A DNA stretch of 64,000 nucleotides from a virus, in IMG/VR virus record IMGVR_UViG_3300034110_001237, positions 1-64,000 of that record; one strand, given 5' to 3'. The position numbers were made by a program, and so were the translations under genes. Below the pieces are notes generated by a model. The model was not told where the DNA came from and searched no databases. It was given only the letters and a program-made list of their open reading frames with translations. Positions 2,520 to 50,674 of this stretch are shown piece after piece; positions within the stretch are counted from its first letter, which is position 1; each line of letters starts with the position of its first letter.

Positions 2520-3359
2520 ATGTGGCTAACTAAATATTTTAATAAAAAACAAAATAAAGAAAACTCATTGATAAATCATATTAAGGATAACTATGATTTC
2601 GATGAAGTCTTTTTAATTAAAGAAACTGATGAATGTTTTTCATTAAGTATTAATCTTTTAGCGGCATCCATTATTGAGCGTAACAATAGTTCAATGGGAG
2701 TAGTAACTGTTGATCCAGTTCATATAGAAAAGTTAGTTAATCAAATAAAATCAGAAGGTGATTGTTTAATAATTAAATTTTCACGTCGATATGTCATGTC
2801 TACAGCATATTATTATGCTGTTTTGTTAAATAATTCTGAAGGCTATACAATCCCTTCTAGGTATATAACTGATCCACGATTATTTTCTACATTTCCTTCA
2901 CTTAGAGGATTTGACTACAAATTTATTGAAAACTTAATAAAATTTAAAAGTTATAGATATGTAAAAACTAACAACCATATTAACATAATACCTTCTTATT
3001 CCATTCGATTTCCTGTGAAACCCACTGGGTTACTGGAAAATTTTAGAGATAGCTATTCATTAAGAAATCTACAATCAACATGTTCTCGTGATTTAGAAGT
3101 TATTGTTGATATCGAAACCATTGATAAAATTGTTAATTACTCAGTTAAATTATTTTACGGAAATCTATTGTTGAAAGAAAAAAATGTTTTAGAAATTCCT
3201 GATCTTGAAGCTTTCTTTGACGACTTTTTATTTCCTTACAATATGAAATATGAATTAATTAATGAACTAGGTATATCATTACCTTTACAATTTACACCCG
3301 AGTTTTTAAAATCTATGGATGATGATTTTAAGCTTACCGTTGACATGTTAAAGATATAG
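2520..3359 (+). CDS. MxxI-tail family protein, paralog group A
   Basis: GGAGG RBS, ATG 2520; HIKDNYDFD, FLFP motifs; ends VDMLKI. Confidence 0.8.
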   Translation: MWLTKYFNKKQNKENSLINHIKDNYDFDEVFLIKETDECFSLSINLLAASIIERNNSSMGVVTVDPVHIEKLVNQIKSEGDCLIIKFSRRYVMSTAYYYAVLLNNSEGYTIPSRYITDPRLFSTFPSLRGFDYKFIENLIKFKSYRYVKTNNHINIIPSYSIRFPVKPTGLLENFRDSYSLRNLQSTCSRDLEVIVDIETIDKIVNYSVKLFYGNLLLKEKNVLEIPDLEAFFDDFLFPYNMKYELINELGISLPLQFTPEFLKSMDDDFKLTVDMLKI

Positions 3360-3372
3360 GAGAACATCAATC

Positions 3373-4254
3373 ATGGATTCATCTGTAAAAAAAAATTTAT
3401 CTACAGTAGATATTCTGTCTACTGAAAATAAAAGTTATGTTGATATTTTTTTAAATCATTTGAAAACTCAATATGACTACGACAGCGTATCTCTTTATAC
3501 ATTTAAAGCACCCTTCGAAAATTACAATTTTAGTATTTTAACTGATGCCCTTAACTCAATTCTTTCTGTGCTTTTAAAAAATCCTACAAAAGAAGATATT
3601 GAACGACGTAAAGAATTTTTATTGAATTATTTTGATACTATTAATATTGTAAAACTTACTAGGTCTTATGAATTGGATGAAGAAAACTTATATTTAATTA
3701 TTTCAGTTCATTTCAATGAAGCAAATGAATTTATAATAAGTTTGCCAGAAAAATTTAATAATCTGAAAATTATTAACCATCATAATGTTATTAATGATCA
3801 AATGAAGAGTTATTATTTTGACGATTACATGTCTTATTTAAATTTCAAAATAGATGTTGTATCAAAATCATGTATTTTAGAGGAATCTTTAATTGTTAAA
3901 ATAAAGGTTGCCGATGAAACACCATTATTGAGTTATAGCTATGATTCTAGATCATCCATTCAAACTAACTATAATAGAAAAGCACAACTTACTATAAGTT
4001 TAATAAAAATAAATGATCTTGAACTATTAATAGGTTTAAAACTTAAATTAAACAAAATCACACTAAAACAATACTCAGGTCATATTAATATTAATAATTT
4101 CAATATTAACAAGGTTGTTGAAAGATTTATTTTTCCATTAAATGAAGGTATTGAGTTATTGAATAGTTGGAATATTAATCCTCAATTAACTTACGATTTT
4201 ATGAATGTTGATTACAGTAATTTCTGGGATATTAAAATGATGGTGCAAATATGA
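3373..4254 (+). CDS. MxxI-tail family protein, paralog group A
   Basis: HLKTQYDYD, RKAQ, FIFPLNE; ends KMMVQI. Confidence 0.8.
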   Translation: MDSSVKKNLSTVDILSTENKSYVDIFLNHLKTQYDYDSVSLYTFKAPFENYNFSILTDALNSILSVLLKNPTKEDIERRKEFLLNYFDTINIVKLTRSYELDEENLYLIISVHFNEANEFIISLPEKFNNLKIINHHNVINDQMKSYYFDDYMSYLNFKIDVVSKSCILEESLIVKIKVADETPLLSYSYDSRSSIQTNYNRKAQLTISLIKINDLELLIGLKLKLNKITLKQYSGHININNFNINKVVERFIFPLNEGIELLNSWNINPQLTYDFMNVDYSNFWDIKMMVQI

Positions 4255-4270
4255 AAAATAGGGAATTCAC

Positions 4271-5197
4271 ATGAAAGAAGGGCATGTATTTAGATCGTTT
4301 ACTGATACTGGTAACATCTATTCACACCAAGTATTACAGAACAAGACACTTGAGAACTTCCTTTCTCACTTGAAAACATCTCTTGATTATGAACAAGCAG
4401 CTATTTATATTTACGATAACATACAAAAAGATACTAACATAGAACTTATTAGGGATGCTATTCATTTTATATTGCATGCTCGTTTCAATATTGTCGATCC
4501 AGAACAATATAATGAATTTAAAGAACTTTTGTTTACTTATTCTGACATTATTCAAGTTGTGCAATTAACTCGTGTCTACAAACGTCATAAAGAGCATCAT
4601 TATTTATTTGTATGCAGTTATTTTGATGGAGAAGACCTAAATATCATTATCCCAGCACAGTTAAATTATTACTCTTTATTAAGGGTGCCATTAGTTAACA
4701 TTCCTTTTAGTAATTTAGGAAACTATCATGTTAGACCTAAGCCGACCTATGAAGATTGTAATCATTTTATTGAATTTAAAGAACGTAAAGTAAATGCTAA
4801 ACAAACAATATTTTTTTTTCAATCTGTCTGCGAAATAAATATGGAAGTGAGTGACTTTAGTCCTATTTTAAGTAATCGACTTAAAACAAAATATGCCCCA
4901 ATAAGTTATGATAGAAAAGCACAAGTCATTCTAATACTGTATCCAGATGATGCTGAGTTTCAACTCGACTATTTTCTTGATTTATCTCTAATCATTGGAC
5001 AACGGGTTATCAAAAATAATTTAATGACTCATAATAGTCAACTAGACTTGGAAAAAATTATTGATAAATTTATCTTTCCACTGAATGAATCTTATGATCT
5101 TATCTCGGAATGGAATTTAGATCCTGAGTTGACCGAAGAGTTTATGTCTAAAGATTACGAATCGTTCTGGCAATTAAAAGAAATGGTGCAAATATGA
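4271..5197 (+). CDS. MxxI-tail family protein, paralog group A
   Basis: HLKTSLDYE, RKAQ, FIFPLNE; ends KEMVQI. Confidence 0.8.
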   Translation: MKEGHVFRSFTDTGNIYSHQVLQNKTLENFLSHLKTSLDYEQAAIYIYDNIQKDTNIELIRDAIHFILHARFNIVDPEQYNEFKELLFTYSDIIQVVQLTRVYKRHKEHHYLFVCSYFDGEDLNIIIPAQLNYYSLLRVPLVNIPFSNLGNYHVRPKPTYEDCNHFIEFKERKVNAKQTIFFFQSVCEINMEVSDFSPILSNRLKTKYAPISYDRKAQVILILYPDDAEFQLDYFLDLSLIIGQRVIKNNLMTHNSQLDLEKIIDKFIFPLNESYDLISEWNLDPELTEEFMSKDYESFWQLKEMVQI

Positions 5198-6111
5198 TTA
5201 AATCTTTTTTAAACCTGTTTAGGACTGTAAAAAAAGATGAATTCGTTATTGAACCTTTGCCAGTATCTGATGTTGATAACTTTTTCATGAAATTACAAAA
5301 ACCTTTAAATAACCTTGTGTCTTTTTTAAAAGAGACTTATTCATATGACCGAGTAACTTATTATTCTTTTGACCAGCCGTTTTCTAATTATTCAAAAAAA
5401 GCTAGAATAATTCTTGAAGATGCATTGATTAATATTTTTGGGGTTGATCATGTATCTTCAAAATTAGAAAGGTTAAGTAATTTTCAGTTTATTGTATGTG
5501 ATAGGGTTTATGATAACACTCATACATCCGATTACATACAGCTTTATCATTTTGATAATCCTGATGGCAAGTTGAGGATTCTTCTTGATGGAGATGAATC
5601 CCATCTAGGTTTTTTACGAATACCATTTATTAGTTTAAATGGGGTCATTGGATTAGAAAATCGAAAATTTTTAGAATATAGGGAAATATATGATGAAAAT
5701 TTATCTGAATTTCCAGTTTTTAGAACTCTTGATAATATTTACAGTAAAGTCATTTCTGTAAGAAAAACTCCACCTATTCTTGACATCCTTTATTATCCTT
5801 ACAATGAATCTGATTATCCATTGTATGAATATAGAGAAGCAGACTTTATCATTAAAAAGTATTTTGATCCATCTGGGTTTGAATATTGCTTATTTGAGTT
5901 ACGCTATGTCAAGGAAATTATAAAGACAAAAACGATCAAGATTGATTGTTTAGTTTTTGACATTAATAAAGAAGTTGATGAATTCTTATTTCCATTATTA
6001 GAAAAAACAGAAATGTTAGACGCTATCCATCTTGTTCCAACGCTTTCTGTTGAATTCATGAGTCAAGACTTTTCTGATTTTATTGCCGTAAAAAATATGA
6101 CCGTTATTTGA
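5194..6111 (+). CDS. MxxI-tail family protein, paralog group A
   Basis: FLKETYSYD, FLFPLLE; ends KNMTVI; ATGA overlap with upstream gene. Confidence 0.8.
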   Translation: MIKSFLNLFRTVKKDEFVIEPLPVSDVDNFFMKLQKPLNNLVSFLKETYSYDRVTYYSFDQPFSNYSKKARIILEDALINIFGVDHVSSKLERLSNFQFIVCDRVYDNTHTSDYIQLYHFDNPDGKLRILLDGDESHLGFLRIPFISLNGVIGLENRKFLEYREIYDENLSEFPVFRTLDNIYSKVISVRKTPPILDILYYPYNESDYPLYEYREADFIIKKYFDPSGFEYCLFELRYVKEIIKTKTIKIDCLVFDINKEVDEFLFPLLEKTEMLDAIHLVPTLSVEFMSQDFSDFIAVKNMTVI

Positions 6112-10797: not shown

Positions 10798-11646
10798 ATG
10801 AATAACATCTATAAAGTTTGCATTAAACTCAACTATTCACAAGAATCAGTCACCAAACAAGCTGAAATCACCAAATTGATTTCGTTTATTCATTCAGTCA
10901 TGAGTAAAGCGGGTTGGCGTGAAGCCATTGAATCCGATTCAGTGATTGATTATGTGTTCTCTATCGGTGGTGATGGCACTATGCTGCACACCATGCAAGA
11001 TCATGTTATCACCAAATCCATTGTCGTTGGTATCAACGCTGGTAACGTAGGCTTCTTGACCCCTTACAACATTGAAAATGTCTATGACATGAGCGTCTTC
11101 AAATTCCTTGAAGAAAACGCCAATACCCGTGTTGAACATCGTAGCATTCTCAAACACAGTTTTGACACCCGTTCCGAACAAGGTATGGCAGTGAACGAAT
11201 ATACCTTTACGGCTGACCAAGTGAACCATGTTCTGGACTTCTCCATTGAAGTTGATTACAAAGGCCAAGTCAGTAAAGCAGGTCACTACAAAGCTAATGC
11301 CTTGTTGATTTCTGGCCCTTGTGGTTCTACTGCTTATAACATGAACTCTGGCGGGGCGATTGTTGACCCGACTGTTCGTTGCATGCAGATTATGATGGTT
11401 GCTCCTACTATCTTGGGTATCCGCCCATTGATTATTGGTCGTAACTCCATTATCCGTTTGAAGTTCCATAACAATGCAAAAGTCTTCATTGATGGTCAAC
11501 CACATACTGATATTCCAGTAACCGAAGATGAAACATTCAGTATTGAATTGCTGTCCGAAGAATCTCGTGTGCTGTTGCCTGACGACTTCAACTTTTACAG
11601 CATGCTTAGCACTAAGCTTCACTGGAACAATGGGAGTGGTGTATGA
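10798..11646 (+). CDS. nadK: NAD(+) kinase
   Basis: GGDGT, GINAGNVGFL, NE, GSTAYNMNSGG signature motifs. Confidence 0.92.
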   Translation: MNNIYKVCIKLNYSQESVTKQAEITKLISFIHSVMSKAGWREAIESDSVIDYVFSIGGDGTMLHTMQDHVITKSIVVGINAGNVGFLTPYNIENVYDMSVFKFLEENANTRVEHRSILKHSFDTRSEQGMAVNEYTFTADQVNHVLDFSIEVDYKGQVSKAGHYKANALLISGPCGSTAYNMNSGGAIVDPTVRCMQIMMVAPTILGIRPLIIGRNSIIRLKFHNNAKVFIDGQPHTDIPVTEDETFSIELLSEESRVLLPDDFNFYSMLSTKLHWNNGSGV

Positions 11647-12398: not shown

Positions 12399-13121
12399 TT
12401 AGATAATAAGCATTTCAACTACTTTTAAAGCTGCTTTTGTTCTTCTTGACATATTGAACTCTTCTTTTAAGTAGAGGTCGTAGAAACATTGTTCAAATGC
12501 TTTCGCTGAATACTTTTCCAATGTAACTTCTTTATATGAAGTCTTAGTTATTCTACCGTCTGTTGTTTTTGAATTTGTTTTGTAATAGCCTAGAGTAACC
12601 TTGTCCTCATTAGCTAACAAATCTATTGAAACAGATACTAATCTGTCATTAAATTTAAAGGTTGACTTTAAACAGATAGCAGGTTTCTTGGCTTGTATAG
12701 GCATTAGTATTGTGTGATTGTCGATCAGTGATGCATACGCTAAAGAACCAAGATCTTCATATTTTCTTTCCATTTGAAACTTTGATTTTAAATTATATGT
12801 TTTGATTATATCGATCAACGAGTTTTGAATCTTTTTAATTTTTTTAAAATTTAGCAAATGTTTCAAATTGTTTGCAGGCACATCTTTAAGAATTATTCTA
12901 TTATATTCTGGATTGTAGTTAATCACTATCGTTTCTAAATATTGTGTGACTATATCAATACTTATCGCCAATCCATGTCCAATCTTGTTCTGGCTAATGT
13001 TATAAGATTTAAACAACAACTTATCGTCAAAGATGGTTCTGAGTTGTTGTGTCATCAATTCAAACTGTTCGCCTTCTGAAAGATATTGAAAAGTAAATGA
13101 GTTAATTTTTTCTGGGAGCAT
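12399..13121 (-). CDS. MxxI-tail family protein
   Basis: ends KVVEMLII. Confidence 0.75.
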   Translation of the reverse strand: MLPEKINSFTFQYLSEGEQFELMTQQLRTIFDDKLLFKSYNISQNKIGHGLAISIDIVTQYLETIVINYNPEYNRIILKDVPANNLKHLLNFKKIKKIQNSLIDIIKTYNLKSKFQMERKYEDLGSLAYASLIDNHTILMPIQAKKPAICLKSTFKFNDRLVSVSIDLLANEDKVTLGYYKTNSKTTDGRITKTSYKEVTLEKYSAKAFEQCFYDLYLKEEFNMSRRTKAALKVVEMLII

Positions 13122-13131: not shown

Positions 13132-13767
13132 TCAATATTTCAACATTTCAATTGTTTTCAAACTGTCTTTATTGAAATCTTTAATGGTTTGAAAAGATTC
13201 TGCCATGTATTTTTTGACATCATCAAAACTGTATTCAGTGTTTTTAATACCTTTATGATCAAATACAATTTCATTATTAATGTAAGTGTACATTTCATTG
13301 CTGAACTTAATTTTTTTATCTTCTTTTTTTCGTTTTAACAAATTAAGAAGTCCGTCATCAAAAAACAGTGTATATTCTGGTTTGTTTTCTGTATTCTTGA
13401 TGAAATCATTTTCATTAATCAGTCTTTTGGCTACTTTAAATTCATAAGTATAGAGCAAGAGGATACCAACTGACATTAGTACACTGGATGTGCTTCCAAA
13501 ATTATAGTTCCCTTCTCCAATACTATTCATGAACAAGCATGCTCCCACTATCAAAAAATTAGACATTGAACGAATGACCATTGATTTTGACAATAGTAAA
13601 TAGATGTATATGATAATGTTGCCTAAAAAGAAAGAAATCCCCGTCAACACCATGTATTTATTTTCGCCATATTCATATTGAGCATAAGCTGCCGATAATC
13701 CTAAACAGGCTATAAGTAGGTAAGGTTGAAAGACAATCGCTAATTTCGCCTTAGTATTAAAATTCAT
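13132..13767 (-). CDS. MxxI-tail family protein with 4 N-terminal TM segments
   Basis: four hydrophobic segments; ends KTIEMLKY. Confidence 0.75.
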   Translation of the reverse strand: MNFNTKAKLAIVFQPYLLIACLGLSAAYAQYEYGENKYMVLTGISFFLGNIIIYIYLLLSKSMVIRSMSNFLIVGACLFMNSIGEGNYNFGSTSSVLMSVGILLLYTYEFKVAKRLINENDFIKNTENKPEYTLFFDDGLLNLLKRKKEDKKIKFSNEMYTYINNEIVFDHKGIKNTEYSFDDVKKYMAESFQTIKDFNKDSLKTIEMLKY

Positions 13768-13888
13768 CAGTTAAGCCTCTTTATAAGATGGTATTATTTT
13801 AACAGCTATCACGTAATTAATCAACAAAAAGCTTGATTTGTGTGGTCTTTTTTGCTATTATTTACAAAATTATTTAGAGATTGTTATC

Positions 13889-14587
13889 ATGAGCACTATT
13901 AAAACATCCAAGCAAAAATATCCCAAGACCTACCATGTTCCTTGGAGTTTGGCTATTCAATCTGATGACAAAGTTTTTAAATCCATGAACCATTTTCATG
14001 GTAAATTTATTGTAGCTACTGAAAAGCTTGATGGTGAAAACACTACGTTGTCTTCAACCTACTACCATGCACGTAGCCTTGATAGTACATTCAACTGGAC
14101 TCGCTCTTGGGTTGCAACTATGCACGCTTGCCTTCGCTATGATATTCCAGAAGGTATAAAGCTTGTAGGGGAGAACTTGTTTGCTAAACACGCGATTGAA
14201 TATCCAGATTATTCGTTGGAAGGTTATTTCTATCTGTTTTCTATGTGGGAGGACATTATAGGTAGTGAAGAAGACTATTGCCTTGATTACGACGATATTG
14301 TGAGCTATGCCAATCTGTTTGATTTGCCTATGCCGAAAGTACTCTATCGTGGTATTTATGATGAAGTCGCTTTACAAAAAATTGCTAAGGAGCTGGATAC
14401 TTCTCGTTGTGAAGGTTATGTTATTCGCACGGTTGATGGTTTCATGCGGAGTGAGTTTACCAAATGTGTGGCAAAATTTGTTCGTGCTAACCATGTTCAA
14501 GACGCTTCGGAACATTGGTTGAAAAATGCTGTTCAAAATGGTAAATTACAACCTACTGTCCGTCCAAGCTATATGGGAAAAATTTAA
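13889..14587 (+). CDS. RNA ligase (Rnl2-like nucleotidyltransferase)
   Basis: KYPKTYHVPWS, motif I TEKLDGEN, GENLF, EGYVIR, AKFVR. Confidence 0.85.
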   Translation: MSTIKTSKQKYPKTYHVPWSLAIQSDDKVFKSMNHFHGKFIVATEKLDGENTTLSSTYYHARSLDSTFNWTRSWVATMHACLRYDIPEGIKLVGENLFAKHAIEYPDYSLEGYFYLFSMWEDIIGSEEDYCLDYDDIVSYANLFDLPMPKVLYRGIYDEVALQKIAKELDTSRCEGYVIRTVDGFMRSEFTKCVAKFVRANHVQDASEHWLKNAVQNGKLQPTVRPSYMGKI

Positions 14588-15423: not shown

Positions 15424-15494
15424 CTTTGACCCGATGGTATTATTCTGTTATTATGAATGCCGCTTAATGTGGCATTTTTTTTGGAGATTTTTAA

Positions 15495-16244
15495 ATGAGA
15501 GTTAGGATTGATTTAAAAACTATTGATCTGGTGAAGGTGTTTAACCCGAAGGTTAATGTCAACGATCTCTATTTGCCTGTTGAAAATGTCTACGAAACCC
15601 GTGAACCATCTATTCGTAGAAAATCAGTGCGTCGTGGAAAAGACATTTATGAAGAATATGATTTCATTTTTTACTATGCAAAAAAAAGTTTTGTTAATTT
15701 TAAAATATTGAGTGATAAAACCACTTATTATGTGATTGTCGATGGTGTTGTGATTACTGTGCCTCATGATATTGAGCTTGATTATAATTTCACGCTTCAT
15801 GAGATGTTGGTAAAAGATTTCGTTAACCAATCAAAACACCTAAATAACCTCCAAAAAGCGTCAATGATTAACCTTTACCTTACACAACTTCATAAGTCTT
15901 CAAAACATGCCTTTAAATCAATTTTTGTTGACTTTTTCACCAATAAGCAATTCAGTGAGCGAAACGTGCTATCGGGTGGTGGATTGGTTCGTAATTTTGT
16001 TTGTGAATTTACTTATGCCGGTCACCGGTTTTCACTGTATGCTCATTCTAGTAAAAATGAGGTTTATGTTGAATACTTATTTGCAGATTTTAAATTCAAA
16101 CGATCCTATCCAGCGTCATCCAGTAATATTGATAAATTTATTCTTGATTTTGTGAATGAGCACGAGTATAATTGTAAGACTGCCAAGGAAGCTGTCAAAC
16201 ACCTTGATGATTTTATTCTAATTCGTAAAATGTCTAGCATTTAA
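15495..16244 (+). CDS. MxxI-tail family protein
   Basis: GGAG RBS; ends LIRKMSSI. Confidence 0.75.
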   Translation: MRVRIDLKTIDLVKVFNPKVNVNDLYLPVENVYETREPSIRRKSVRRGKDIYEEYDFIFYYAKKSFVNFKILSDKTTYYVIVDGVVITVPHDIELDYNFTLHEMLVKDFVNQSKHLNNLQKASMINLYLTQLHKSSKHAFKSIFVDFFTNKQFSERNVLSGGGLVRNFVCEFTYAGHRFSLYAHSSKNEVYVEYLFADFKFKRSYPASSSNIDKFILDFVNEHEYNCKTAKEAVKHLDDFILIRKMSSI

Positions 16245-19020: not shown

Positions 19021-19045
19021 AAAGCAACCTTCGGGTTGCTTTTTT
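19021..19045 (+). terminator. intrinsic terminator (cUUCGg loop)
   Basis: AAAGCAACC-TTCG-GGTTGCTTTTT. Confidence 0.85.
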
Positions 19046-19096
19046 GTTGACTTTAAAAAAGTGATTGATATGATATCTATCTAAAAAGGATATATT

Positions 19097-19891
19097 ATGA
19101 GCTTAATGAGCATTATTAACAGCCATCGTAGTAAACACTACTGTTATTTAGAAAACGACCCTAATGCAACAGACCCACCTGAATATTTCATACCGGGAGC
19201 AACGTCTATCCCTGTTGTTAGGGATAAAACAGTTCCCTTCAGGAATATTCAACCAATTGATGAACGAAGAGAATCTATAAAACATATTGAAATCAAAGAC
19301 AATTCAGATAGTTTTTTATTGTTTTTATTTTCAAATAAAATTTTTTCAATAGACATTTATGACTATGATTATATAATATCGTTAATAGATGAAGGTATTA
19401 ATAGATTAAATTATATAGGATTAATTGTTCATTTGACTTTTAGTTTAGAAGAAAATGGAACATATTTATTAAAAAGTAAAAATTTTTTAAATAGCGATTT
19501 TAAACCCTATTATTTTGAAAACAACATATCGTCTGTTTTTAGTATTCATTACAACGATAAAAATCCTCATTCAACTTTTTTTCAAAAAATTTTTGATGGG
19601 GTTTCTATTAGAAATTACATGACAAAAGAAACACATAAAAAGAGTATTTACCTTTTTGATGAACGTATTTATCTTGATGTTATTGTCAATTCCGAATTAA
19701 AAGATGTTCTTACTCCCTTAATTATTGCTTATGATGAGTTTGGTATTTTATATACTGAATACTATTATAATTCGACAATTATTTCTACGGATATTTTGAA
19801 ATCACTTGATCCATTTTTTGATGAGAAAATTGCTGACTTTTACTACCTAACCCCAGAAGAAGTGGATACACTTGAAATGTTATTAGTTTAA
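19097..19891 (+). CDS. MxxI-tail family protein, paralog group B
   Basis: PLIIAYD...EYYYN...DILK shared with 32847/33728; ends DTLEMLLV. Confidence 0.75.
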   Translation: MSLMSIINSHRSKHYCYLENDPNATDPPEYFIPGATSIPVVRDKTVPFRNIQPIDERRESIKHIEIKDNSDSFLLFLFSNKIFSIDIYDYDYIISLIDEGINRLNYIGLIVHLTFSLEENGTYLLKSKNFLNSDFKPYYFENNISSVFSIHYNDKNPHSTFFQKIFDGVSIRNYMTKETHKKSIYLFDERIYLDVIVNSELKDVLTPLIIAYDEFGILYTEYYYNSTIISTDILKSLDPFFDEKIADFYYLTPEEVDTLEMLLV

Positions 19892-22167: not shown

Positions 22168-22929
22168 ATGATTAGTCAAGGATTCAAAGAAAAAGTTAAA
22201 GAACTGTTGTATCTTTATTACAAAATTCAATGTGATAAGATTGTCTCATTATCAGATATGCTTTACACCATAAATGCTAAAAGTCAGTCAGGCCAAAGCC
22301 TTTATTTAACACTTGATATTTATGGTAATGAATTTGGTTCATCAACATCCACCTATTTTAAAGTGTATATTGATGGAGATGATGTTATTAATCAAAAATT
22401 ATTCATGATTGATAAAATTCAAAATGCCATGAATAAATCTTTGGAACTTTTAAAATCTGTTAAAGCCTGCAGCATTAATTCTTTAAAATTAGATAGTCGT
22501 AATGAAAAGTATGTACTTCTCTCAGGTGGTTGCTCTATGGGACGAAGTTATATGAATATTACATACACTATCCCATACTCAGAAGACAATGGTCTTACTT
22601 TGCTTGGTAATAATTCGCTTTACAACATAGCTGACATTGATATGAAAGTTTTTGACTGCAATTTTAAAGTATTAGATGAAGCAAAATCTTTTGTTTCTAG
22701 CAATTACTTGACAGATTTCAACTGTAATTTAAAAGATGGTAATCAAACGGACTTAGACGATTATCTTCTGAAAATTATTGTCTGTTATGATTTGGCACTT
22801 TACAGCTATAATTTTACAGACGTAGAGACATTAAATTTTTTCAAAGGTTTAAAATACGACTTAATTTCTTATGAAAATGTTGAATATATAAAAGATTTCT
22901 ATACAGTCATTAGCATGGTTGAAGTTTGA
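22168..22929 (+). CDS. MxxI-tail family protein
   Basis: ends TVISMVEV. Confidence 0.72.
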   Translation: MISQGFKEKVKELLYLYYKIQCDKIVSLSDMLYTINAKSQSGQSLYLTLDIYGNEFGSSTSTYFKVYIDGDDVINQKLFMIDKIQNAMNKSLELLKSVKACSINSLKLDSRNEKYVLLSGGCSMGRSYMNITYTIPYSEDNGLTLLGNNSLYNIADIDMKVFDCNFKVLDEAKSFVSSNYLTDFNCNLKDGNQTDLDDYLLKIIVCYDLALYSYNFTDVETLNFFKGLKYDLISYENVEYIKDFYTVISMVEV

Positions 22930-27223: not shown

Positions 27224-27421
27224 ATGACTAACAAAACCATTGATGTTACCAAAATTGCTTGCCAACTTGAAGAAAAAACACTCGAAATCAACAAAATTGA
27301 TGAATTGATTTCTCGTGAGAAAAAAGAGAGCTGCATTAGCACTTTCAAAGTTGCTCGTAAAATTGCTTTCAAAGAGCTTAAAAAGCTTGAAAAAATTCTT
27401 CAAAAGAACGTATTCGCTTGA
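27224..27421 (+). CDS. small helical hypothetical protein
   Basis: GAGGG RBS, ATG 27224. Confidence 0.6.
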   Translation: MTNKTIDVTKIACQLEEKTLEINKIDELISREKKESCISTFKVARKIAFKELKKLEKILQKNVFA

Positions 27422-28311: not shown

Positions 28312-28375
28312 ACATTGAGTTACCATCAGGTTTGTGCTATACTTGATGGTATATTTTTATAAAGGTTTCTTTCCC

Positions 28376-32846: not shown

Positions 32847-33725
32847 TTAGATTTTCAGCATGTCTAAACATTCAATGTCTCTACTGGTGAAATAATCACT
32901 ATCTCTAAAATTATCTTGCAATATATTGGGCTTCAATTCAAATAATACGTCTTTATTAATTAGTTCATTTTCGTAGTAACAGAACACTTCAAGTGCATTG
33001 CCTTTCATATCTTCTACAATAACAGCCGGAATGACCTTATTTTTGTCCGGGTTTATTGTTGTATAGACTTGAACACCTAGTTGGATGTAATGATGAATTT
33101 TAAGATAAGTCCCCTTATTTTCTTCAAAAACAAAATGTTGATGACCCGAAATAACATTATATTCTGATATTTCAAAGATACTTGCTGTTTTTTCATCATA
33201 GTAAGGAACTAACCTGTCATCTATTTTTCTTTTAATCGTTTTCTTAACTAGGCTCATTACCCCTTTACTTGATATAAATTCCATATCAAACACCATATCA
33301 TTTTTTAAATTCATTTGATCAAAATATTGTTGAATGATGGCGTCTTCTTGTATATCGAATGAAACAGAATTGTTTTTCAGTATAAGATCTTCAAATTTTT
33401 CTAAATTAAGTGTCCCTTTATATTCAGGAGCACATTTATTTTTATCATAGTTACTGAATTCAATGAGTTCTACTTTTCTTGTATTCGCCCTGTTGTTTTT
33501 TATATTTTGATAATAGAGTGTTTTCATTCCCATGTTAGGCATAAAACCCACCACCAAATTTTGCAGCATTTGAGGCGACCCATGAGCGAATGGGTTAATG
33601 GTATTAGACATTTTGCTATGTTTGTCATTGATTGCAATTAATCCATCATAAACATCATTACTTATTTCATAATCTGGATATATATTTACCTTGTGTTTTG
33701 GTTTTGTTGACATATTTTTCTCCAT
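32847..33725 (-). CDS. MxxI-tail family protein, paralog group B
   Basis: NPD...PAVIV.D.....LEVFCYY.N; ends ECLDMLKI. Confidence 0.8.
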   Translation of the reverse strand: MEKNMSTKPKHKVNIYPDYEISNDVYDGLIAINDKHSKMSNTINPFAHGSPQMLQNLVVGFMPNMGMKTLYYQNIKNNRANTRKVELIEFSNYDKNKCAPEYKGTLNLEKFEDLILKNNSVSFDIQEDAIIQQYFDQMNLKNDMVFDMEFISSKGVMSLVKKTIKRKIDDRLVPYYDEKTASIFEISEYNVISGHQHFVFEENKGTYLKIHHYIQLGVQVYTTINPDKNKVIPAVIVEDMKGNALEVFCYYENELINKDVLFELKPNILQDNFRDSDYFTSRDIECLDMLKI

Positions 33726-33727
33726 TT

Positions 33728-34576
33728 TTAAATCATTGCCATGTCAATAAACTCAAGATCACGTTTATCAAAATAGCCATTCACAAGAAAATCTTCTATT
33801 AATAAGTTTGGTTTTATTTCTTTTATCAAATCATTTGGAATATACTTATTTTTATAATAACAGTGAACTTCAAGTGGACGATTGTCAAGGTCAGACACTA
33901 CAATAGCAGGTACCAGTTTTTCAGTGTCTGGGTTTTTTATTATATCTACGAATAGACTCAGTTCATTGTAGTAATGACGTTCCATGTAACTCTGTTTTGT
34001 TTGGTGATTAAACACATTGTTACTATCGAGAGTATCTGAACTTTTTAGCTCAATTACACTGGGTTTTGACGTATCGTAGTAATAAACTAATTGGTCACCT
34101 ACGGTTTTAAAGAATTTTTTTCTGTTTGAAAAAAGCTTTTCGGAAACTTTTAAAAATTGGAGATGAATTATCATATCTTCATGAGCAGCGGAATTTTTCA
34201 ACAGAGCAAGAAGTGTGCCTTTATCTTCGCTTACGGTTATAAAATCATTGCTATACAAAAATTGTTTAAACTGATCAATGTTAACATCCATGATATATTC
34301 ACATTTCTTTTTATTCTTTGGATAGCTATTAAACCTAGGAAAAGAATCAATCCACGAATCAAATAGAGACATATTCATTGTTTGAAGAGGTGGCATATTT
34401 AAGATAGGTAATGAGAATGTCGATTTACTTCGAGGTTGCACCACATTTTGATTTAAGCTGGGTTTTGGATTATTCCAAAATTGTGAAGGTGCCGGTGCAT
34501 TTAATAAAAGATCGTCCACATCCCAATAAAACCCTTCATGTATTATGATTTCGTGTTTTGACATAATTTTCTCCAA
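33728..34576 (-). CDS. MxxI-tail family protein, paralog group B
   Basis: NPD...PAIVV.D.....LEVHCYY.N; ends EFIDMAMI. Confidence 0.8.
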   Translation of the reverse strand: MEKIMSKHEIIIHEGFYWDVDDLLLNAPAPSQFWNNPKPSLNQNVVQPRSKSTFSLPILNMPPLQTMNMSLFDSWIDSFPRFNSYPKNKKKCEYIMDVNIDQFKQFLYSNDFITVSEDKGTLLALLKNSAAHEDMIIHLQFLKVSEKLFSNRKKFFKTVGDQLVYYYDTSKPSVIELKSSDTLDSNNVFNHQTKQSYMERHYYNELSLFVDIIKNPDTEKLVPAIVVSDLDNRPLEVHCYYKNKYIPNDLIKEIKPNLLIEDFLVNGYFDKRDLEFIDMAMI

Positions 34577-38945: not shown

Positions 38946-39026
38946 TATTTAATATAATTTATTGAGCTGTTGGTATAACCATAGCTCTGCTTGATTAACT
39001 AAACTAAAAAATAAAGGTGATATAAA

Positions 39027-39278
39027 ATGTTCTTAAATACTATCAGTATAACTAAACAACTTTTGAAGACTGGCCGTCTTGAAATGAACTACAATGAAAA
39101 AAATTTCCGCAAGAAATATGAGCTTGGCTTCTGGGAAGTTTATCAAGATGTTCATACTGTCTCAAAAAACATTGTCAGTGGGCCATACAGAGTATTCCGT
39201 CCTATCTACAAAACTGGTAATCTTGATAAGTTGAATTCAAAACTGGCTAAATTGACTGCACAGTCATCACTCTATTAA
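39027..39278 (+). CDS. small hypothetical protein
   Basis: AAGGTG RBS; long leader from upstream promoter. Confidence 0.65.
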   Translation: MFLNTISITKQLLKTGRLEMNYNEKNFRKKYELGFWEVYQDVHTVSKNIVSGPYRVFRPIYKTGNLDKLNSKLAKLTAQSSLY

Positions 39279-39341
39279 TTATCAGTTGAAATAGTAGTTG
39301 TATTTCATAATTTAAAAGCACCTTCTTTTAGGTGTTTTTTG

Positions 39342-39370
39342 TTGACTAAATATTGTTAAAATGATATAAT
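39342..39370 (+). promoter_or_regulatory. sigma70-type promoter
   Basis: TTGACT-17 bp-TATAAT with TG extension. Confidence 0.8.
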
Positions 39371-39400
39371 TAAAATCCAATAATTATTAAGGGTCTAACA

Positions 39401-39607
39401 ATGTTAATCAAAGAAACTTACAAAGTGCTTGGAAATAATTGGTGGAAAGTTCCTAACGGTGAATTCGTTGTAACTACAGATACGCTTGTTGTCACCGATG
39501 TCACAGAAGAAAAAGCTATATTTAATGTTTTTCGTGATGGTGTTGTTATTGGTGAAATTCGTGTTCAACATGCTTTTGTAAATGAAGATTTTGAAAAAAT
39601 TAACTGA
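39401..39607 (+). CDS. small hypothetical protein
   Basis: downstream of strong promoter. Confidence 0.65.
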   Translation: MLIKETYKVLGNNWWKVPNGEFVVTTDTLVVTDVTEEKAIFNVFRDGVVIGEIRVQHAFVNEDFEKIN

Positions 39608-39697
39608 ATGTGCTTATTATGATGTTAGTATCTACATTGATCACTAAAAACAGCATTTACACTAATTTTAATATATAATCAACTAAATGGAGAAAAT

Positions 39698-39982
39698 ATG
39701 GACTTTATAAGCAGATCTAAAGGTTTTATTCGTTTTGCTTTTTGGGGATTTTTTTCAATGTGTTTCCTTTTTATTCAAAACTTCTTTTATCACATTTACT
39801 ACAAGGGTAAATACAAACTGCAAGAAAGCAAAATTCAGTTATTTATTTTTATTGTGTTTACGGTGGTGACATTGAATCTAGCTTGTTTGATTCATTTTTG
39901 GCGACAAGCTAAAGAAATGCTACCAAAAATCTATCGTATCAGTCAGTATCCAGCGGATAACTCAGTCGAGATTAAATTATGA
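39698..39982 (+). CDS. small membrane protein
   Basis: GGAG RBS; two hydrophobic segments. Confidence 0.65.
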   Translation: MDFISRSKGFIRFAFWGFFSMCFLFIQNFFYHIYYKGKYKLQESKIQLFIFIVFTVVTLNLACLIHFWRQAKEMLPKIYRISQYPADNSVEIKL

Positions 39983-40317
39983 AAATTAAATTCTTGTGGT
40001 TGAAATTTGTTTTGACATTTATGGGCTTTAATGTGGTCGCTGTTCGGTGTGTTGATTCGTCTCGGAAAGTATTGAGTTATACCTTGAACAACGATTACAA
40101 CACTCAATCTGGATCGTGTATCAATTACCCATTTCTCAGTATTTCTATTGATCAAAATGGTTTATACTCTACTCAAATTTATCAAGATACACCGATTTTT
40201 GATAACAAGGTTTACACCAATAAATCGCCATATCCATTAATTAAATTGTGGTTAAAGTCTCAACATCACTACCGTTCAACACGAAATAATAAATTTAAAT
40301 GGAGTATATTTAATTGA
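39979..40317 (+). CDS. hypothetical protein
   Basis: ATGA overlap with upstream gene. Confidence 0.55.
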   Translation: MKIKFLWLKFVLTFMGFNVVAVRCVDSSRKVLSYTLNNDYNTQSGSCINYPFLSISIDQNGLYSTQIYQDTPIFDNKVYTNKSPYPLIKLWLKSQHHYRSTRNNKFKWSIFN

Positions 40318-40718
40318 ACTATTCTCATGCAACAATTATGAATTCTAAAATCTTAGAACCTTATCATCATCATAATGAACGACTTTTTAATAAGTTGCGG
40401 GAAGCACACGACTATGCTCCACAAGTCGCACAACAGATGGCTTATCAGGCATTGCTGGTTGATGATGGGGCTTTTGCTTCGTTGTTTAAAAAAATCACCG
40501 CCTTTGTATTGCAAAATCCTTATGAACCTTTGACATTAATCGAATATTCTGTCTTGGATAGAGCCGTTGATTTTTATAAAAAAGGAATTGAAGAAACCAA
40601 AACAGATTTGGCCGCTCATATGGTCACATCTGATGTGATTAATGCCTATGTTGAAAGTCAGCAATCAACAGTGATACTTGCCAACAAAATATTGAATAGA
40701 ATGCTTAAAATTGTGTAA
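40314..40718 (+). CDS. hypothetical helical protein
   Basis: GGAG RBS before TTG start. Confidence 0.65.
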   Translation: MNYSHATIMNSKILEPYHHHNERLFNKLREAHDYAPQVAQQMAYQALLVDDGAFASLFKKITAFVLQNPYEPLTLIEYSVLDRAVDFYKKGIEETKTDLAAHMVTSDVINAYVESQQSTVILANKILNRMLKIV

Positions 40719-41148
40719 TTTCAAGCGTTATTTTTTCTTTTTCAACGTCTTTGAATAGTTGGTTAAAATCAAATAATATTTTGGTAATGTCCAATACCTT
40801 GTATGTCTTTTTAATTTCCATTTTCTCGTAACATGATAAGTTCATACGAGGATTTGGATGTGTCTTGTTGCTATCAATAATAAATACATCGCCATAGTGT
40901 TTTTTACCTTTATAAATTTCATTAATGTGTGAACGTCCAGTAATAACATGGTAGGTATCGTTTTCTTTGTAAATGTATATTCCAAAATAATGAATCAATT
41001 CTAAATCTGAATGCATTTCTATTCTGGATAAGTCTAGTATCTTTTCATAATAGTTTAATTTAAGTTGTATATATAGTTCATGGACACTTTTGTCATTCTC
41101 TGTATCTATGTTCGTTGTTAACTTTGAAACTCTTGGTGTTACTTTCAT
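40705..41148 (-). CDS. hypothetical protein, possible variant of the MxxI-tail family
   Basis: ends ITLEITQF (Ile in place of Met). Confidence 0.6.
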   Translation of the reverse strand: MKVTPRVSKLTTNIDTENDKSVHELYIQLKLNYYEKILDLSRIEMHSDLELIHYFGIYIYKENDTYHVITGRSHINEIYKGKKHYGDVFIIDSNKTHPNPRMNLSCYEKMEIKKTYKVLDITKILFDFNQLFKDVEKEKITLEITQF

Positions 41149-43456: not shown

Positions 43457-44236
43457 TTAGATTCCTGCCATTTCTAATACCGTCATGTTTTCATTGAGTC
43501 CATTATCAAAAATTCCTTTTAAATATAAATCTTTTAGTTCCATGTAAAAAATTTCACAGTTTTCTGATGTTCTTATATCACTTATCGAAAAGTGAGGATA
43601 CATTTCTAAAAATGTTTGATTATATAAGAAAGCTTTCCAACTAATTTTATTAAAAAATTGATCAAATTTGTCAATTTCTCCATGAGATATTATATTTAAT
43701 GGATCAAATGATCTACTAAAATCAATATTTATTTTTTTTTCTATATTGCCTAGCTCATTAAATTTATATTTAATAATGACTACATCAATATCATCATTAT
43801 TTATATCTAAAATTCGACTGATTGAATGCTTAATTTTATTAAATTTCGTATCAATAGTGATATTAAAATCAAACATATTGTGTGTTTCTTTAAAATTCTC
43901 TTTATTATCAAAAATGTCTCTTTGACCAATTAATCTATAACCTTCGATTTGTTGATTTTTATCATATTCAAAATGAAGAGTTCCAGCAGAATCTTTGACA
44001 CCAAATGTAGAGGAAGCATGATTTTTATCACCCACCATATAACGATTAATTCGAATATTTTCAAAGTTAATCGAATCGTCATAATGTTCATTTATTTCAT
44101 TTAACCAGTGGATGATTCTATGTTTAAAATAAAAAATGTATTCAGGTTGCATCGCAACCATACAAATCCTTCTACCTTTCAGGATAGAAAAGTCTGGTTT
44201 CATATAGTCAAATTCAACAGTTTCATCAGTTTTCAT
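43457..44236 (-). CDS. MxxI-tail family protein
   Basis: ends MTVLEMAGI. Confidence 0.75.
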   Translation of the reverse strand: MKTDETVEFDYMKPDFSILKGRRICMVAMQPEYIFYFKHRIIHWLNEINEHYDDSINFENIRINRYMVGDKNHASSTFGVKDSAGTLHFEYDKNQQIEGYRLIGQRDIFDNKENFKETHNMFDFNITIDTKFNKIKHSISRILDINNDDIDVVIIKYKFNELGNIEKKINIDFSRSFDPLNIISHGEIDKFDQFFNKISWKAFLYNQTFLEMYPHFSISDIRTSENCEIFYMELKDLYLKGIFDNGLNENMTVLEMAGI

Positions 44237-47100: not shown

Positions 47101-47180
47101 CATGATAAAATGTTCCATTTTAATGAATATTATGATATAATTTCGATATTAACCAATTGTTTTTTATTGAGGATTTATCA

Positions 47181-48116
47181 ATGAAAGTTATCCAGCATAA
47201 TACACATTTTAATCGCTCTCTGCCAAAAGATGGCATTTCCGATAACTTGGTTTCATTTTTAGAGATGATTAATCAACAATTTTCATTTGATCACGCCCAT
47301 CTCTATCATCTGACAAATGCAAATATCAGTGATTACAAAAGTGTTATCATTGAGGCTATTGGTAATCGTATTAAATTGCTTCGTGGTGTTGGGCCAAGAG
47401 ATAACCAAGATTCATTGGTTAAGGAAATTAATTCTGATTTTGATGAGATTATGGATGCAAATATTTTTCCAGTATCTTTGATTATTTTTGATTATGTCTA
47501 TGGTTCAACAGTAGAATCTTCAATGGTATTTTTTCATGAACATAATAACATGTTAATGATTAATACTAAATTTTCTACATTAGTTTTTGAAAATAAATAC
47601 TTTCATGCTCCAAATATTTCTTCATCTGATGGTCTTTATTATTCCCCTGCTGTAGAATCGCTTGCTTATGAAAGTTCTACCACAAAGGGAACTTTTCCTT
47701 TTGCATCATTTTTAATCCCTGTTAATATAGAAAAAAATCATTTTGAATCGCCATACAGAGAAATTCATCAGAAAAAAGCAGAATTTCAAGTAAGAGAGCT
47801 TGATGGTGGTCAAGATAAATTTCAACAAGTAACAATTCCACCTAATTTTGATATGAATAAATTTATGTTTCGATCTAATGGTCAGCCAAAGATTCTTAAT
47901 ACGAGACTTATCTATAACAATGAAGTTATTTTTAATGATTATGATATTATTGTTTGTGATCCACAAAAAATAGTTATGCAAAAGTTACTACCCTTTTTGA
48001 CTGACTTTAAATCACAATATGAGATTATTGATAGCATGCCTGTACAGGTTTCTTCCGAATATTATGAACATTTCAAAGCCAATATCTTGCCTGTTATTGA
48101 TATGGCTAAATGTTAA
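47181..48116 (+). CDS. MxxI-tail family protein (distant group A)
   Basis: FLEMINQQFSFD like group A N-motif; ends PVIDMAKC. Confidence 0.75.
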   Translation: MKVIQHNTHFNRSLPKDGISDNLVSFLEMINQQFSFDHAHLYHLTNANISDYKSVIIEAIGNRIKLLRGVGPRDNQDSLVKEINSDFDEIMDANIFPVSLIIFDYVYGSTVESSMVFFHEHNNMLMINTKFSTLVFENKYFHAPNISSSDGLYYSPAVESLAYESSTTKGTFPFASFLIPVNIEKNHFESPYREIHQKKAEFQVRELDGGQDKFQQVTIPPNFDMNKFMFRSNGQPKILNTRLIYNNEVIFNDYDIIVCDPQKIVMQKLLPFLTDFKSQYEIIDSMPVQVSSEYYEHFKANILPVIDMAKC

Positions 48117-48646: not shown

Positions 48647-48700
48647 TGTCTTTATTTTATTTTTATGATATACTTATCCAAATTTTTGGAGATCTGTTAA

Positions 48701-49357
48701 ATGCCTAATCCCGATAGAATTGCTCAGTTAACTGCAGTGGCTAATATGAGCCAGCTTGACAAAATTGAGCGGTTGACCACTACCATTAAAAAAGTCTACG
48801 GCATTGATGTGTCAGACGTAAAACTGGTTAAGAATCAAACCGCCCAGTACAAAGCGAAAACATCACTTGGTCCTGCTCGTATCTATGTTTATTCGCAGTG
48901 CATTGATATTAAATTCACATCGACTGTAGCATTTGATGGTCAACAACTCACTTTGAAAAAATCCACGGACGTGATTCAAACTATTTTTGATGACATCAAT
49001 AAACGAACGGTTATTTTTAATGTCGTCAAATTACGTCAACAAAATAATAAAGATGTCCATTTTTATGGTAATACCAAATTCAGTATTAAGATTGTGGTGC
49101 GATTTTCTGCGACTAATCCACAACTGTATTTTAAAGCGACACCTTATTCAACGTATTCTTTCTTTAACTACATGAATGAATGTGCCATGTCGGGTTATAA
49201 AAAGACGCTTGAAGTGTATTATTTGAAAGCTGAATTTGATTCCATAACAGGCGTTGAGCAAGCATTCTCTTTTATTAAAGATTACTTTAAAGGTCGGAAT
49301 CTCACGCTTGATGATGCGAAACGTTTAGCTGACTTGCAGGATATGGTAAAAATATGA
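48701..49357 (+). CDS. MxxI-tail family protein, group D
   Basis: GGAG RBS; ends DLQDMVKI. Confidence 0.8.
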   Translation: MPNPDRIAQLTAVANMSQLDKIERLTTTIKKVYGIDVSDVKLVKNQTAQYKAKTSLGPARIYVYSQCIDIKFTSTVAFDGQQLTLKKSTDVIQTIFDDINKRTVIFNVVKLRQQNNKDVHFYGNTKFSIKIVVRFSATNPQLYFKATPYSTYSFFNYMNECAMSGYKKTLEVYYLKAEFDSITGVEQAFSFIKDYFKGRNLTLDDAKRLADLQDMVKI

Positions 49358-50007
49358 GCATCTTAGATGAAACAAATTCTTCATTTTACAGTGACGGCAT
49401 TTATGCCTCTAGATCTCTATTAAATGAACACTTTAATCTTACATTTTCTAATGTAACTAAATACACTGACCATGACTATAAAGCAGATGGAGATTATGCT
49501 GTTGATATTTACATTTCAAACAGTGATGTTATCTATCTAACTTTTAAAGAAATGATTTCATTAAATGATGGTATCTTGGTATCTGTATTTGATCATCCAT
49601 TGATTAATAAATATCTAGCAGATATGAACGGTTTGTTTTGTATTTTTGATGCTGTTCGATTTACAACTGACGAAAAGAAATTTTTTTATCCTGTTATTGA
49701 AAACCTGAAACCATCCATTGTTTTTAAATATAGTATTCTTAATAGAGAAATGACAATTTCTGTTCAGTTACTTAACACCATTCAAAAAGATGGTGAATCT
49801 ATTTGCACAATAACAAAAAATACTATTATTCAAAATACTTATGAACCAGCAAAGTTTGATCATGTGTATGGATTAAAAAGCCCATTTTATCACAGTGATC
49901 TTTTAATTTATAAAGAAAGAATTTTAAAGGTTTGGGGGATCTCTCCTGACTCTCCAACCATTGACTATAAACAAATGGGACAATTAACCGATATGATTCA
50001 TATTTAA
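49354..50007 (+). CDS. MxxI-tail family protein, group D
   Basis: TKN..IQN.YEP, WGI..DS..IDY; ends LTDMIHI. Confidence 0.8.
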   Translation: MSILDETNSSFYSDGIYASRSLLNEHFNLTFSNVTKYTDHDYKADGDYAVDIYISNSDVIYLTFKEMISLNDGILVSVFDHPLINKYLADMNGLFCIFDAVRFTTDEKKFFYPVIENLKPSIVFKYSILNREMTISVQLLNTIQKDGESICTITKNTIIQNTYEPAKFDHVYGLKSPFYHSDLLIYKERILKVWGISPDSPTIDYKQMGQLTDMIHI

Positions 50008-50014
50008 GGCCATT

Positions 50015-50674
50015 GTGATGACTGATGAGATAACCTATATTGATAAACTGCCTGTTGAATATAATATCTTACAGAATATTGTAAGTAATCAATTTGGACT
50101 TGTTGTTTCTAAATTTAAACAAGCTCATTATGATGGTTATATTGGACAATCTCAGTATAATGAAACAGTTAATATTTTCACAGCACGTTCAGTCTATTAT
50201 ACTTTTTCATTTGAAAACATTATTACTATTGAGAATAATCAAGTTGTTACTCGATTAAATTCACCCGTTATTCAGCTTATTCTGGATGACGTTAATAAGA
50301 CACTTCACATAACAGAAGCTTTGCGTTTTAGCCATGATGGAATCATCCATATTCCTGTTCTACCTAATGTTAAATCTTGGCTTGTTTTTAAATATAATAA
50401 TAAACTTGAATTCATGACCATTGAAATACACTTTGCAGTAATTCGTGAAGAAGGCTGCGATGCCCCTTATGAATTAACCACAAAAAATGTATTCATCCAA
50501 AATGCCTATGAACCATCAGGTTTTAAGAAAATCTATTCCATGACAGGTGAACTAATTAAAGATGATTTAGCCGGGTATCATAGTAAATTATTAGCCATAT
50601 GGGGTATTCCAGAAGATTCTACTGATATTGATTATCACCGATTAGGCGTATTAAGCGATATGATCACTATTTGA
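50015..50674 (+). CDS. MxxI-tail family protein, group D
   Basis: TKN..IQN.YEP, WGI..DS..IDY; ends LSDMITI. Confidence 0.8.
   Translation: MMTDEITYIDKLPVEYNILQNIVSNQFGLVVSKFKQAHYDGYIGQSQYNETVNIFTARSVYYTFSFENIITIENNQVVTRLNSPVIQLILDDVNKTLHITEALRFSHDGIIHIPVLPNVKSWLVFKYNNKLEFMTIEIHFAVIREEGCDAPYELTTKNVFIQNAYEPSGFKKIYSMTGELIKDDLAGYHSKLLAIWGIPEDSTDIDYHRLGVLSDMITI

Follow-up and report, generated by a model that had tools for sequence, protein, structure and literature searches.

Tailed proteins in the first 64 kb of the record

The stretch of DNA analyzed here (the window) comprises 64,000 nucleotides, the first 64 kb of the IMG/VR record IMGVR_UViG_3300034110_001237 (161,697 bp, 33.8% GC; coded G000). 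The record is held by IMG/VR as a 'provirus' with an estimated completeness of about 50%, and it belongs to an element that we call, as a provisional label, giant phage-like and of prokaryotic type. Within the window, 19 genes on both strands encode proteins that share a C-terminal tail with methionine four residues from the end, written here as Met(-4), the last residue being -1; a further gene carries a variant of this tail. A first-pass annotation had drawn attention to these endings, and the observation proved to be real and larger than first noted, with roughly one protein in five of the element ending in the same 15-residue helix. All 19 quoted endings were exact when the listed open reading frames (ORFs) were translated, and translation likewise reproduced an acidic residue (D/E) at -5 in 15 of the 19 and the last residues Ile (13), Tyr (3), Val (2) and Cys (1). 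The starts 2520, 28376 and 47181 given in that annotation correspond to internal start choices of ORFs 2505–3359, 28334–29584 and 47157–48116, respectively.

The carriers of the tail occur as tandem paralogues, as dispersed members of the same family and as single copies. The first group comprises three consecutive genes at 3373–4254, 4271–5197 and 5194–6111 (all +), encoding proteins of 293, 308 and 305 amino acids (aa) that end in KMMVQI, KEMVQI and KNMTVI; the adjacent carrier at 2505–3359 (+, 284 aa, VDMLKI) is a distant member of the same group, linked to it by profile comparison. On the opposite strand, a single-copy gene at 12399–13121 (-, 240 aa, VEMLII) retains the tail in its G001 and G003 orthologues, and a membrane carrier is located at 13132–13767 (-, 211 aa, IEMLKY). 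The first-pass annotation had noted a protein with four transmembrane (TM) segments among the carriers; TM-like segments are indeed present in the first ~110 residues of this one, with two in this copy and up to four in its orthologues. The carrier at 15495–16244 (+, 249 aa, RKMSSI) is preceded by a sigma70-like promoter at 15426–15454, and the carrier at 19097–19891 (+, 264 aa, LEMLLV) by a terminator at 19021–19042 and a promoter at 19047–19074. This last protein shares a BLAST family with two carriers on the other strand, at 32847–33725 (-, 292 aa, LDMLKI) and 33728–34576 (-, 282 aa, IDMAMI).

Further carriers were found at 22168–22929 (+, 253 aa, ISMVEV), 27418–28311 (+, 297 aa, YEMATY), 28334–29584 (+, 416 aa, or 402 aa from the start at 28376, LEMSSY) and 29595–30398 (+, 267 aa, FEMYYI), the last being a paralogue both of the 27418 gene and of genes at 67164–69631, outside the window. 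These are followed by 43457–44236 (-, 259 aa, LEMAGI), 47157–48116 (+, 319 aa, IDMAKC) and a series at 48701–49357 (+, 218 aa, QDMVKI), 49354–50007 (+, 217 aa, TDMIHI) and 50015–50674 (+, 219 aa, SDMITI), in which the first protein is linked to the other two by hidden Markov model (HMM) searches. The variant, at 40705–41148 (-, 147 aa, LEITQF), has Ile in place of Met at -4 in all four orthologues, and the EITQF ending reported earlier can thus be described as a conserved Ile-for-Met form. The RNA-ligase-domain protein (PF09414) at 13838–14587 (+), which ends in YMGKI and is not among the 19 first listed, was rejected as a carrier, since one orthologue ends in ...SYMG and its upstream positions do not fit the motif.

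The frequency of the tail was evaluated on a simple non-overlapping ORF call of the window (n = 100). Met(-4) was observed in 20 of the 100 ORFs, compared with 2.8% Met overall (binomial p 6e-12), which excludes chance, while the Met count at any other C-terminal position was at most 5. When counted per BLAST family, Met(-4) was found in 13 of 93 (p 2e-6). For the complete record, the Met(-4) count was 57 of 255 ORFs, including 47 ORFs of 150 aa or more that match the motif in full. A 12-residue position-specific scoring matrix (PSSM) with a threshold of 10 matched 40 of the 255 C-termini and only 1 of 44,076 internal windows, indicating that the motif belongs to the very end of the protein. 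Together with four related contigs (G001–G004), the record forms a set of five contigs of 152–193 kb each, ~50–59% complete. The tail was identified on 55/275, 39/236, 56/292 and 41/202 ORFs of the four relatives (17–20%), and each of the five contigs contains 39–56 tagged ORFs. Additionally, the tail was found on further loci in JGI, Logan and ENA assemblies. A search of the literature returned no description of a Met-x-x-Ile tail motif.

Register, conservation and predicted fold of the tail

The motif can be written as T-x-[DE]-x-h-x-[LVI]-[LIV]-[ED]-M-h-x-I-COOH (h, hydrophobic) and spans ~15 residues. The family-weighted logo displayed T(-13), D/E(-11), L/F(-9), L/V/I(-7), L/I/V(-6), E/D/K(-5) and M(-4), the last being invariant by selection, followed by a hydrophobic or small residue at -3 (mostly I, L, S, A, V or Y) and any residue at -2. 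Ile occupies -1 in 65%, a hydrophobic last residue being itself a criterion for calling a protein tagged. The most informative positions are L/V/I at -7, the acidic residues at -5 and -11, Met at -4 and Ile at -1; among the most informative positions, -1, -4, -7/-8 and -11 all fall on one helical face, and the helix always stops three residues past the Met. In a leave-one-family-out analysis, positions -5 to -15, with Met and the last residue excluded, split held-out tagged families from untagged ones with an area under the curve (AUC) of 0.92, whereas positions -16 to -30 barely separated them (AUC 0.63). This drop indicates that the shared module is ~15 residues long. Proline is depleted within the module, and an aromatic-Pro motif upstream of the tail showed weak enrichment (13% vs 6%).

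A signal at the nucleotide level, such as a promoter, a recombination site or a mini-ORF, was ruled out as the source of the sharing. Only the ATG is fixed, while the codons for D/E and Ile, the stop codons (TAA 32, TGA 12, TAG 3) and the downstream DNA all vary. In the close pair G000 and G001, synonymous change was 0.184 in the last 15 codons and 0.177 in the bodies, and this similarity indicates that the constraint acts on the peptide and not on the DNA.

The 235 tagged proteins were grouped into 57 BLAST families, 52 of which are mostly tagged. Within families the tail is retained by nearly all members (39/42, 30/34, 16/16 and 12/12); in the others, Met has changed to Ile or the end is longer by one residue. 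The 31%-GC contig G004, a distant relative, carries 41 tails and has almost no body families in common with the window genome. A profile of one family, searched against 1.84e9 proteins, recovered 63 cluster representatives (50%-identity clusters), 57 of which keep Met(-4). Overall, Met(-4) was replaced by Leu or Ile in only a handful of ~290 sequences, and a C-terminal extension was almost never seen. In every family, conservation is highest over the last 30 residues, which align without gaps.

The carriers are also distinct from the remaining genes in several respects. As the first-pass annotation had proposed, they are more AT-rich, with 30.2% vs 36.1% GC in the window (p 2e-7); a further comparison gave 30.7% for carriers and 36.1% for non-carriers (p 6e-14). 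Their median length is 254 aa, compared with 148 aa for non-carriers. Identity to the G003 orthologues was 47.5% for carriers and 73.7% for other genes (p 2e-10), and the tail is kept nonetheless. The true carriers belong to no Pfam or PHROG family, a feature search of the ESM Atlas with carriers returned nothing, and no carriers were detected among INPHARED phages (tblastn, megablast). The earlier remark that no recognizable enzyme bears the tail held up as well, since Pfam searches with 97 tagged representatives matched only the RNA ligase at 13838–14587, whose Met(-4) is due to chance.

The relationships among the bodies were analyzed by iterated HMM searches within the genome and by profile comparison. 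With the last 25 residues removed, ~20 groups remained in the HMM searches. Among 24 multi-genome families (276 pairs), hhalign established only two links, fam6 with fam15 (97%), which joins the 2505 carrier to the 3373–6111 group, and fam0 with fam1 (61%). Body profile scores were marginally higher between tagged families than between tagged and untagged ones (median 14.0 vs 12.9, p 0.003).

Confident AlphaFold models were obtained for both of the families folded, 2 of ~50. One model covers the carrier at 27418–28311 (folded from 27424–28308; predicted local distance difference test, pLDDT, 85; predicted template modeling score, pTM, 0.79), in which the tail forms the last helix, residues 280–294. 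The other represents a member of the seven-gene array of family 0 at 149–155 kb (pLDDT 88.6, pTM 0.85). Compared by element order, with the coordinates of the two models not superposed, both begin with a helix, followed by four strands, a short helix, a second set of four to five strands (five in the 27418 protein) and five helices, the last of which is the tail. The hhalign probability between these two families (A4 vs A5) is only 0.8%. Foldseek searches (the fam2 model against PDB, the fam0 model against BFVD and Atlas) yielded nothing significant, and VIA-wide searches with both models returned only cystatin/NTF2/BLIP-like chains with Z scores of 4.5–6.8, within noise. The weak matches common to both models are 4fr9_A, 6i1m_A and 3u1w_A. 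Other carriers differ in composition: three to four TM segments were predicted in the first ~140 residues of 13132–13767, of the triplet at 98720–100875 and of several G004 carriers.

The shared architecture of the two models, despite the hhalign value of 0.8%, suggests that part of the carrier diversity represents one superfamily that has diverged past sequence recognition; the carriers with three to four TM segments indicate that such a superfamily cannot account for all of it. Two earlier proposals are therefore each retained in part. The carriers had been described as falling into unrelated-looking groups, which agrees with the ~50 families left unjoined by BLAST, iterated HMM searches and hhalign, but not with the predicted architecture common to two of them. 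Conversely, the possibility that all belong to one homologous family with the tail simply buried in the fold is consistent with the same predicted fold in two sequence-unrelated families; against it, profile comparison does not join the bodies and the TM carriers differ.

Element, relatives and gene content

Approximately 30 Pfam families were identified among the 150 largest non-carrier ORFs of the record. They include tryptophanyl-tRNA synthetase (TrpRS), ribosome recycling factor, NAD kinase, a CDF transporter, Sir2 and signal peptidase I, together with GNATs, methyltransferases, dCMP deaminase, T4-type RNA ligases and HNH. The cell-type genes among them (NAD kinase, TrpRS, ribosome recycling factor, CDF transporter and Sir2) are dispersed among orphans, at 10798–11646 (+) in the window and at 142864–143859, 154691–155509 and other positions of the record. 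The TrpRS shows 68% identity to an Acinetobacter-labelled record, a similarity that hints, weakly, at a host among the Moraxellaceae. Neither terminase, family-B polymerase (PolB), PDZ, ClpP, T4 coupling protein (PF02534) nor ABC ATPase (PF00005) was found in the five contigs, which are fragments, and no capsid or terminase gene lies nearby.

Relatives of the element are present in several metagenomes, while none were detected among INPHARED phages (tblastn, megablast) or GTDB species genomes. Close relatives sit within two contigs from different samples, Ga0308423_1259934 (1,851,360 bp; L007) and Ga0308158_10000001 (1,859,102 bp; L058), and the 150–190-kb 'provirus' pieces are cuts made by IMG/VR out of such megabase contigs. 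These contigs may belong to a phage-like genome of megabase scale, or else to an unusual cell. The genes are small and mostly co-oriented, and several starts have a GGAG/AGGA-like motif a few bases upstream, as judged by eye at gene junctions. Sigma70-like promoters and intrinsic terminators are found at some gene units. Overall, promoter-like sites were not above shuffles (100 vs 89), whereas terminator-like sites were (22 vs 9.7). Outside the window, ARAGORN identified tRNA-Leu(TAG) and tRNA-Cys(GCA) at 95623–95706 and 108103–108176 of the record.

Three paralogous trypsin-like proteins (PF13365) with lipoprotein signal peptides (lipobox ...AC/GC) are encoded at 103723–104316 (-), 116025–116735 (+) and 116837–117562 (+) of the record (L003), and these paralogues are conserved as far as G004. 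Together with signal peptidase I, they suggest that the element exports its own proteases. In the window, an adjoining gene pair at 23058–24884 and 24896–26614 (both +), encoding 608-aa and 572-aa proteins, lies among the carriers, is kept in all close relatives and was noted as a candidate partner. It has no match in Pfam, PHROGs or PDB sequences, with only faint Arm/Xpo1-like hints. Three copies of the 608-aa family are present in G004; the downstream partner is BLAST-linked to the 572-aa family at one of them (G004 38972–40600) and associated by adjacency only at the other two. A Sir2 gene lies directly after the seven-gene carrier array (family 0). The trypsin-like exported lipoproteins, the Sir2 beside this array and the 608-aa/572-aa pair were the candidate hubs considered for the tail. 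A carrier of the seven-gene family at 1126–1914 of locus L016 (G002 141034–141822) gave a sub-threshold 18-bit match to PF02916 (T4 gp45 N-terminal, DNA_PPF), the only clamp-like signal, which is probably spurious.

The gene content of G004 (L044–L053, e.g., 121545–123842 (-), 3425–5278 (+) and 67179–74108 (+)) includes a ClpA/B-type double AAA+ protein, a eukaryote-like Ser/Thr kinase and a 2309-aa Mbeg1-like protein. GAPDH, Asn synthase, three aminoacyl-tRNA synthetase-like genes, RtcB, Fpg, Ogt, UvdE, PTH2, NIF phosphatase and two OmpA-family proteins were also identified in this contig.

Possible roles of the tail

Our preferred reading, which we hold tentatively, is that the tail may be a constant C-terminal docking handle, read with its free C-terminus by a common partner and carried by a large, fast-evolving repertoire of variable bodies. 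The helix would have two faces. A generic hydrophobic stripe (-3, -6, -9/-10) would pack on the protein's own last helices, while a specific stripe (-1, -4, -7/-8) and the free carboxylate would be recognized by a partner common to all carriers, which could be a hub protein or a further carrier, and the variable bodies would supply specificity. In the two folded families, these bodies are predicted to consist of helix-plus-sheet modules in tandem, with a cystatin/NTF2/BLIP-like shape, and in others to be bundles of three to four TM segments. A two-faced helix is favored by the invariant Met, the informative positions on one face, the occurrence of the tail on both soluble and membrane bodies and the near-absence of extensions. 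Extensions should arise easily in AT-rich DNA, and their near-absence, like the other three observations, points to a constraint from outside the protein. Conservation between families does not extend to the helices before the tail, and packing within the protein would thus appear insufficient to explain the invariant Met. The sigma70-like promoter and terminator units before several carriers suggest transcription by the host RNA polymerase, and thus early expression.

Several observations weigh against a docking handle. The tail is predicted to be an ordered last helix (pLDDT ~87–93) of a five-helix subdomain and may simply be buried, and no variable linker precedes it. Its helix is hydrophobic round most of its circumference, as a core helix would be. 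In G000 vs G001, nonsynonymous change is only slightly lower in the tail (0.115) than in the body (0.130). Common descent, indicated by the one architecture of the two folded families, could explain part of the sharing, and no receptor was found. The initial proposal of a free-carboxylate peptide read by one receptor is thus compatible with a protein-level C-terminal tail, fast-evolving bodies and rare extension, but the picture of a floppy tag on a linker is replaced by that of an ordered helix.

Alternatively, the tail may be a purely structural cap. In that case, the carriers would mostly derive from one ancestor, and the terminal helix would be the folding core of a shared C-terminal subdomain, kept for stability. 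The same predicted element order and overlapping weak fold matches in two families at 0.8% hhalign probability agree with this explanation, as do the well-ordered tail helix with its almost all-round hydrophobicity, the gap-free and most conserved last 30 residues and the slightly higher scores between tagged bodies. However, several carrier families have three to four TM segments and only ~90 soluble residues, and the sharing between families ends at about -15, so that the supposed packing partners vary while the Met is invariant. A core Met is normally swappable for Leu or Ile, which occurred here in only the handful of sequences mentioned above, and the ends are almost never extended, although AT-rich DNA would be likely to provide another in-frame stop close by. 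We consider a structural cap possible, although on balance unlikely.

The nearest described logic to a docking handle is that of the T4-family clamp tails, which we use as an analogy and not as a statement of membership. In T4, the C-termini of gp43, gp55 and gp33 are acidic-hydrophobic tails that can replace one another and bind a single hub (PMC2988020, PMC6212786), and the tail is joined to the body via a variable flexible linker (PMC2988020). As here, a short acidic-hydrophobic peptide at the extreme C-terminus is common to unlike proteins, and the logo h(-7) h(-6) [ED](-5) M(-4) h(-3) x I(-1) is reminiscent of it. The known tails (RB69 SLFDMFDF, T4 LDFLF) do not fit, however, and three to four carriers with known jobs contrast with ~50 orphan carriers per 160 kb in the present element, where the flexible linker is replaced by a gap-free ordered helix and no clamp is seen.

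Other readers of C-terminal peptides offer partial parallels. PDZ class II ligands (h-x-h-COOH), PTS1/TPR and the CaaX box are read as free-carboxylate peptides, with the key residue of the CaaX box at -4. They share with the tail a strict C-terminal register, a hydrophobic last residue, a variable -2 and a hydrophobic or small -3, whereas here Met is invariant at -4 and the information extends to -15 as a helix. We know of no chemistry for Met at -4, and PDZ (PF13180) is absent from all five contigs, the part of the element that was searched. The poxvirus ankyrin/PRANC (F-box-like) and BTB-Kelch families resemble the carriers, by analogy only, in their tandem paralogue arrays and their variable target-binding bodies with one constant C-terminal docking element; they follow a eukaryotic ubiquitin-ligase logic and use a ~50-residue domain instead of a 15-residue terminal helix.

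A broader proposal, which we regard as unlikely, is that a megabase-scale, phage-like element could use the tail as an address label in a sorting or assembly system not described so far. Several hundred proteins with variable bodies would be recognized at their free C-terminus by a dedicated receptor and brought to a single destination, such as a compartment, the particle or the membrane-embedded carriers, which would act as docking stations. If true, this would represent a prokaryotic-virus counterpart of targeting by peroxisomal (PTS1-type) or nuclear (NLS-type) localization signals.

A transport label of a more familiar kind, used for passage through a secretion machine (export or translocation) or for packaging into the virion and co-injection, seems improbable. 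The Dot/Icm (type IVB) effectors number in the hundreds and are orphan, AT-richer and fast-evolving, with a signal in the last 20–30 residues that is acidic upstream and hydrophobic at -3/-4. The last ~15 residues of the carriers, acidic from -11 to -15 and hydrophobic near -4, resemble type IVB and type I C-terminal signals, and the AT-richer, orphan, fast-evolving carriers in tandem arrays resemble effector repertoires. The element's own signal peptidase I and its lipoproteins, OmpA-family and DsbA-like proteins indicate that it deals with the envelope, and the relatives on 1.85–1.86-Mb contigs make a cellular or cell-like owner possible. Nevertheless, the Dot/Icm signal is loose, and known signals of both types are disordered and have no fixed register, unlike the ordered helix described here; the owner also looks phage-like and not like a Legionella-type cell. 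The coupling protein and the ABC ATPase were missing from the contig fragments, no capsid or terminase gene is located nearby for virion loading, and the sigma70-like promoters point, weakly, to early and not late expression.

Still less support can be given to a C-terminal degron or timer by which early proteins would be passed on, for scheduled removal, to an AAA+ protease (host ClpXP/ClpAP, Lon, FtsH, or the element's Clp-like ATPase), and we judge it quite improbable. Hydrophobic free C-termini are classic protease tags, G004 encodes the 765-aa ClpA/ClpB-type double AAA+ protein, and the carriers look like early genes. Furthermore, the C-terminal XB peptide of SspB on ClpX and ssrA-like degrons similarly tether varied cargo-binding bodies or substrates to one machine. 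Yet no ending resembles LAA, RRKKAI or LRVVK, the ssrA-like and MuA-like tags included, the Clp-like gene was seen in G004 only, with no ClpP in the five contigs, and a degron has no need of an ordered helix with an invariant Met and an acidic cap.

Finally, a true sliding-clamp (PIP-like) motif as in T4/RB69, by which many proteins would be tethered to the DNA clamp of the element, is very improbable. T4-family tails are interchangeable hub handles, and RB69 gp43, which ends in ...SLFDMFDF (Met -4, acidic -5, Leu -7), agrees through L-F-D-M-F-D-F with the tail at its hydrophobic positions (-7, -6, -3 and -1), at the acidic -5 and at Met -4. However, its PSSM score is 1.6 vs a tagged-family median of 15.2 (10th percentile 10.1), and its tail without Met ranks only in the top 10–12% of untagged ends. 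The flexible linkers of T4-type tails have no equivalent here, the five partial contigs yielded neither a polymerase nor a clamp or clamp-like gene, and ~50 clamp clients per 160 kb are implausible.

Where short C-terminal handles connect proteins to a common hub, as with the T4 clamp tails and SspB, only small client sets are known. In this lineage of giant, almost wholly unannotated elements, one tail in exact register marks about one-fifth of the genes, and it offers a common point from which hundreds of orphan proteins could be approached experimentally. The reader of the tail, if found, would supply a common logic for the largest group of uncharacterized genes in the lineage, as well as a portable tag.

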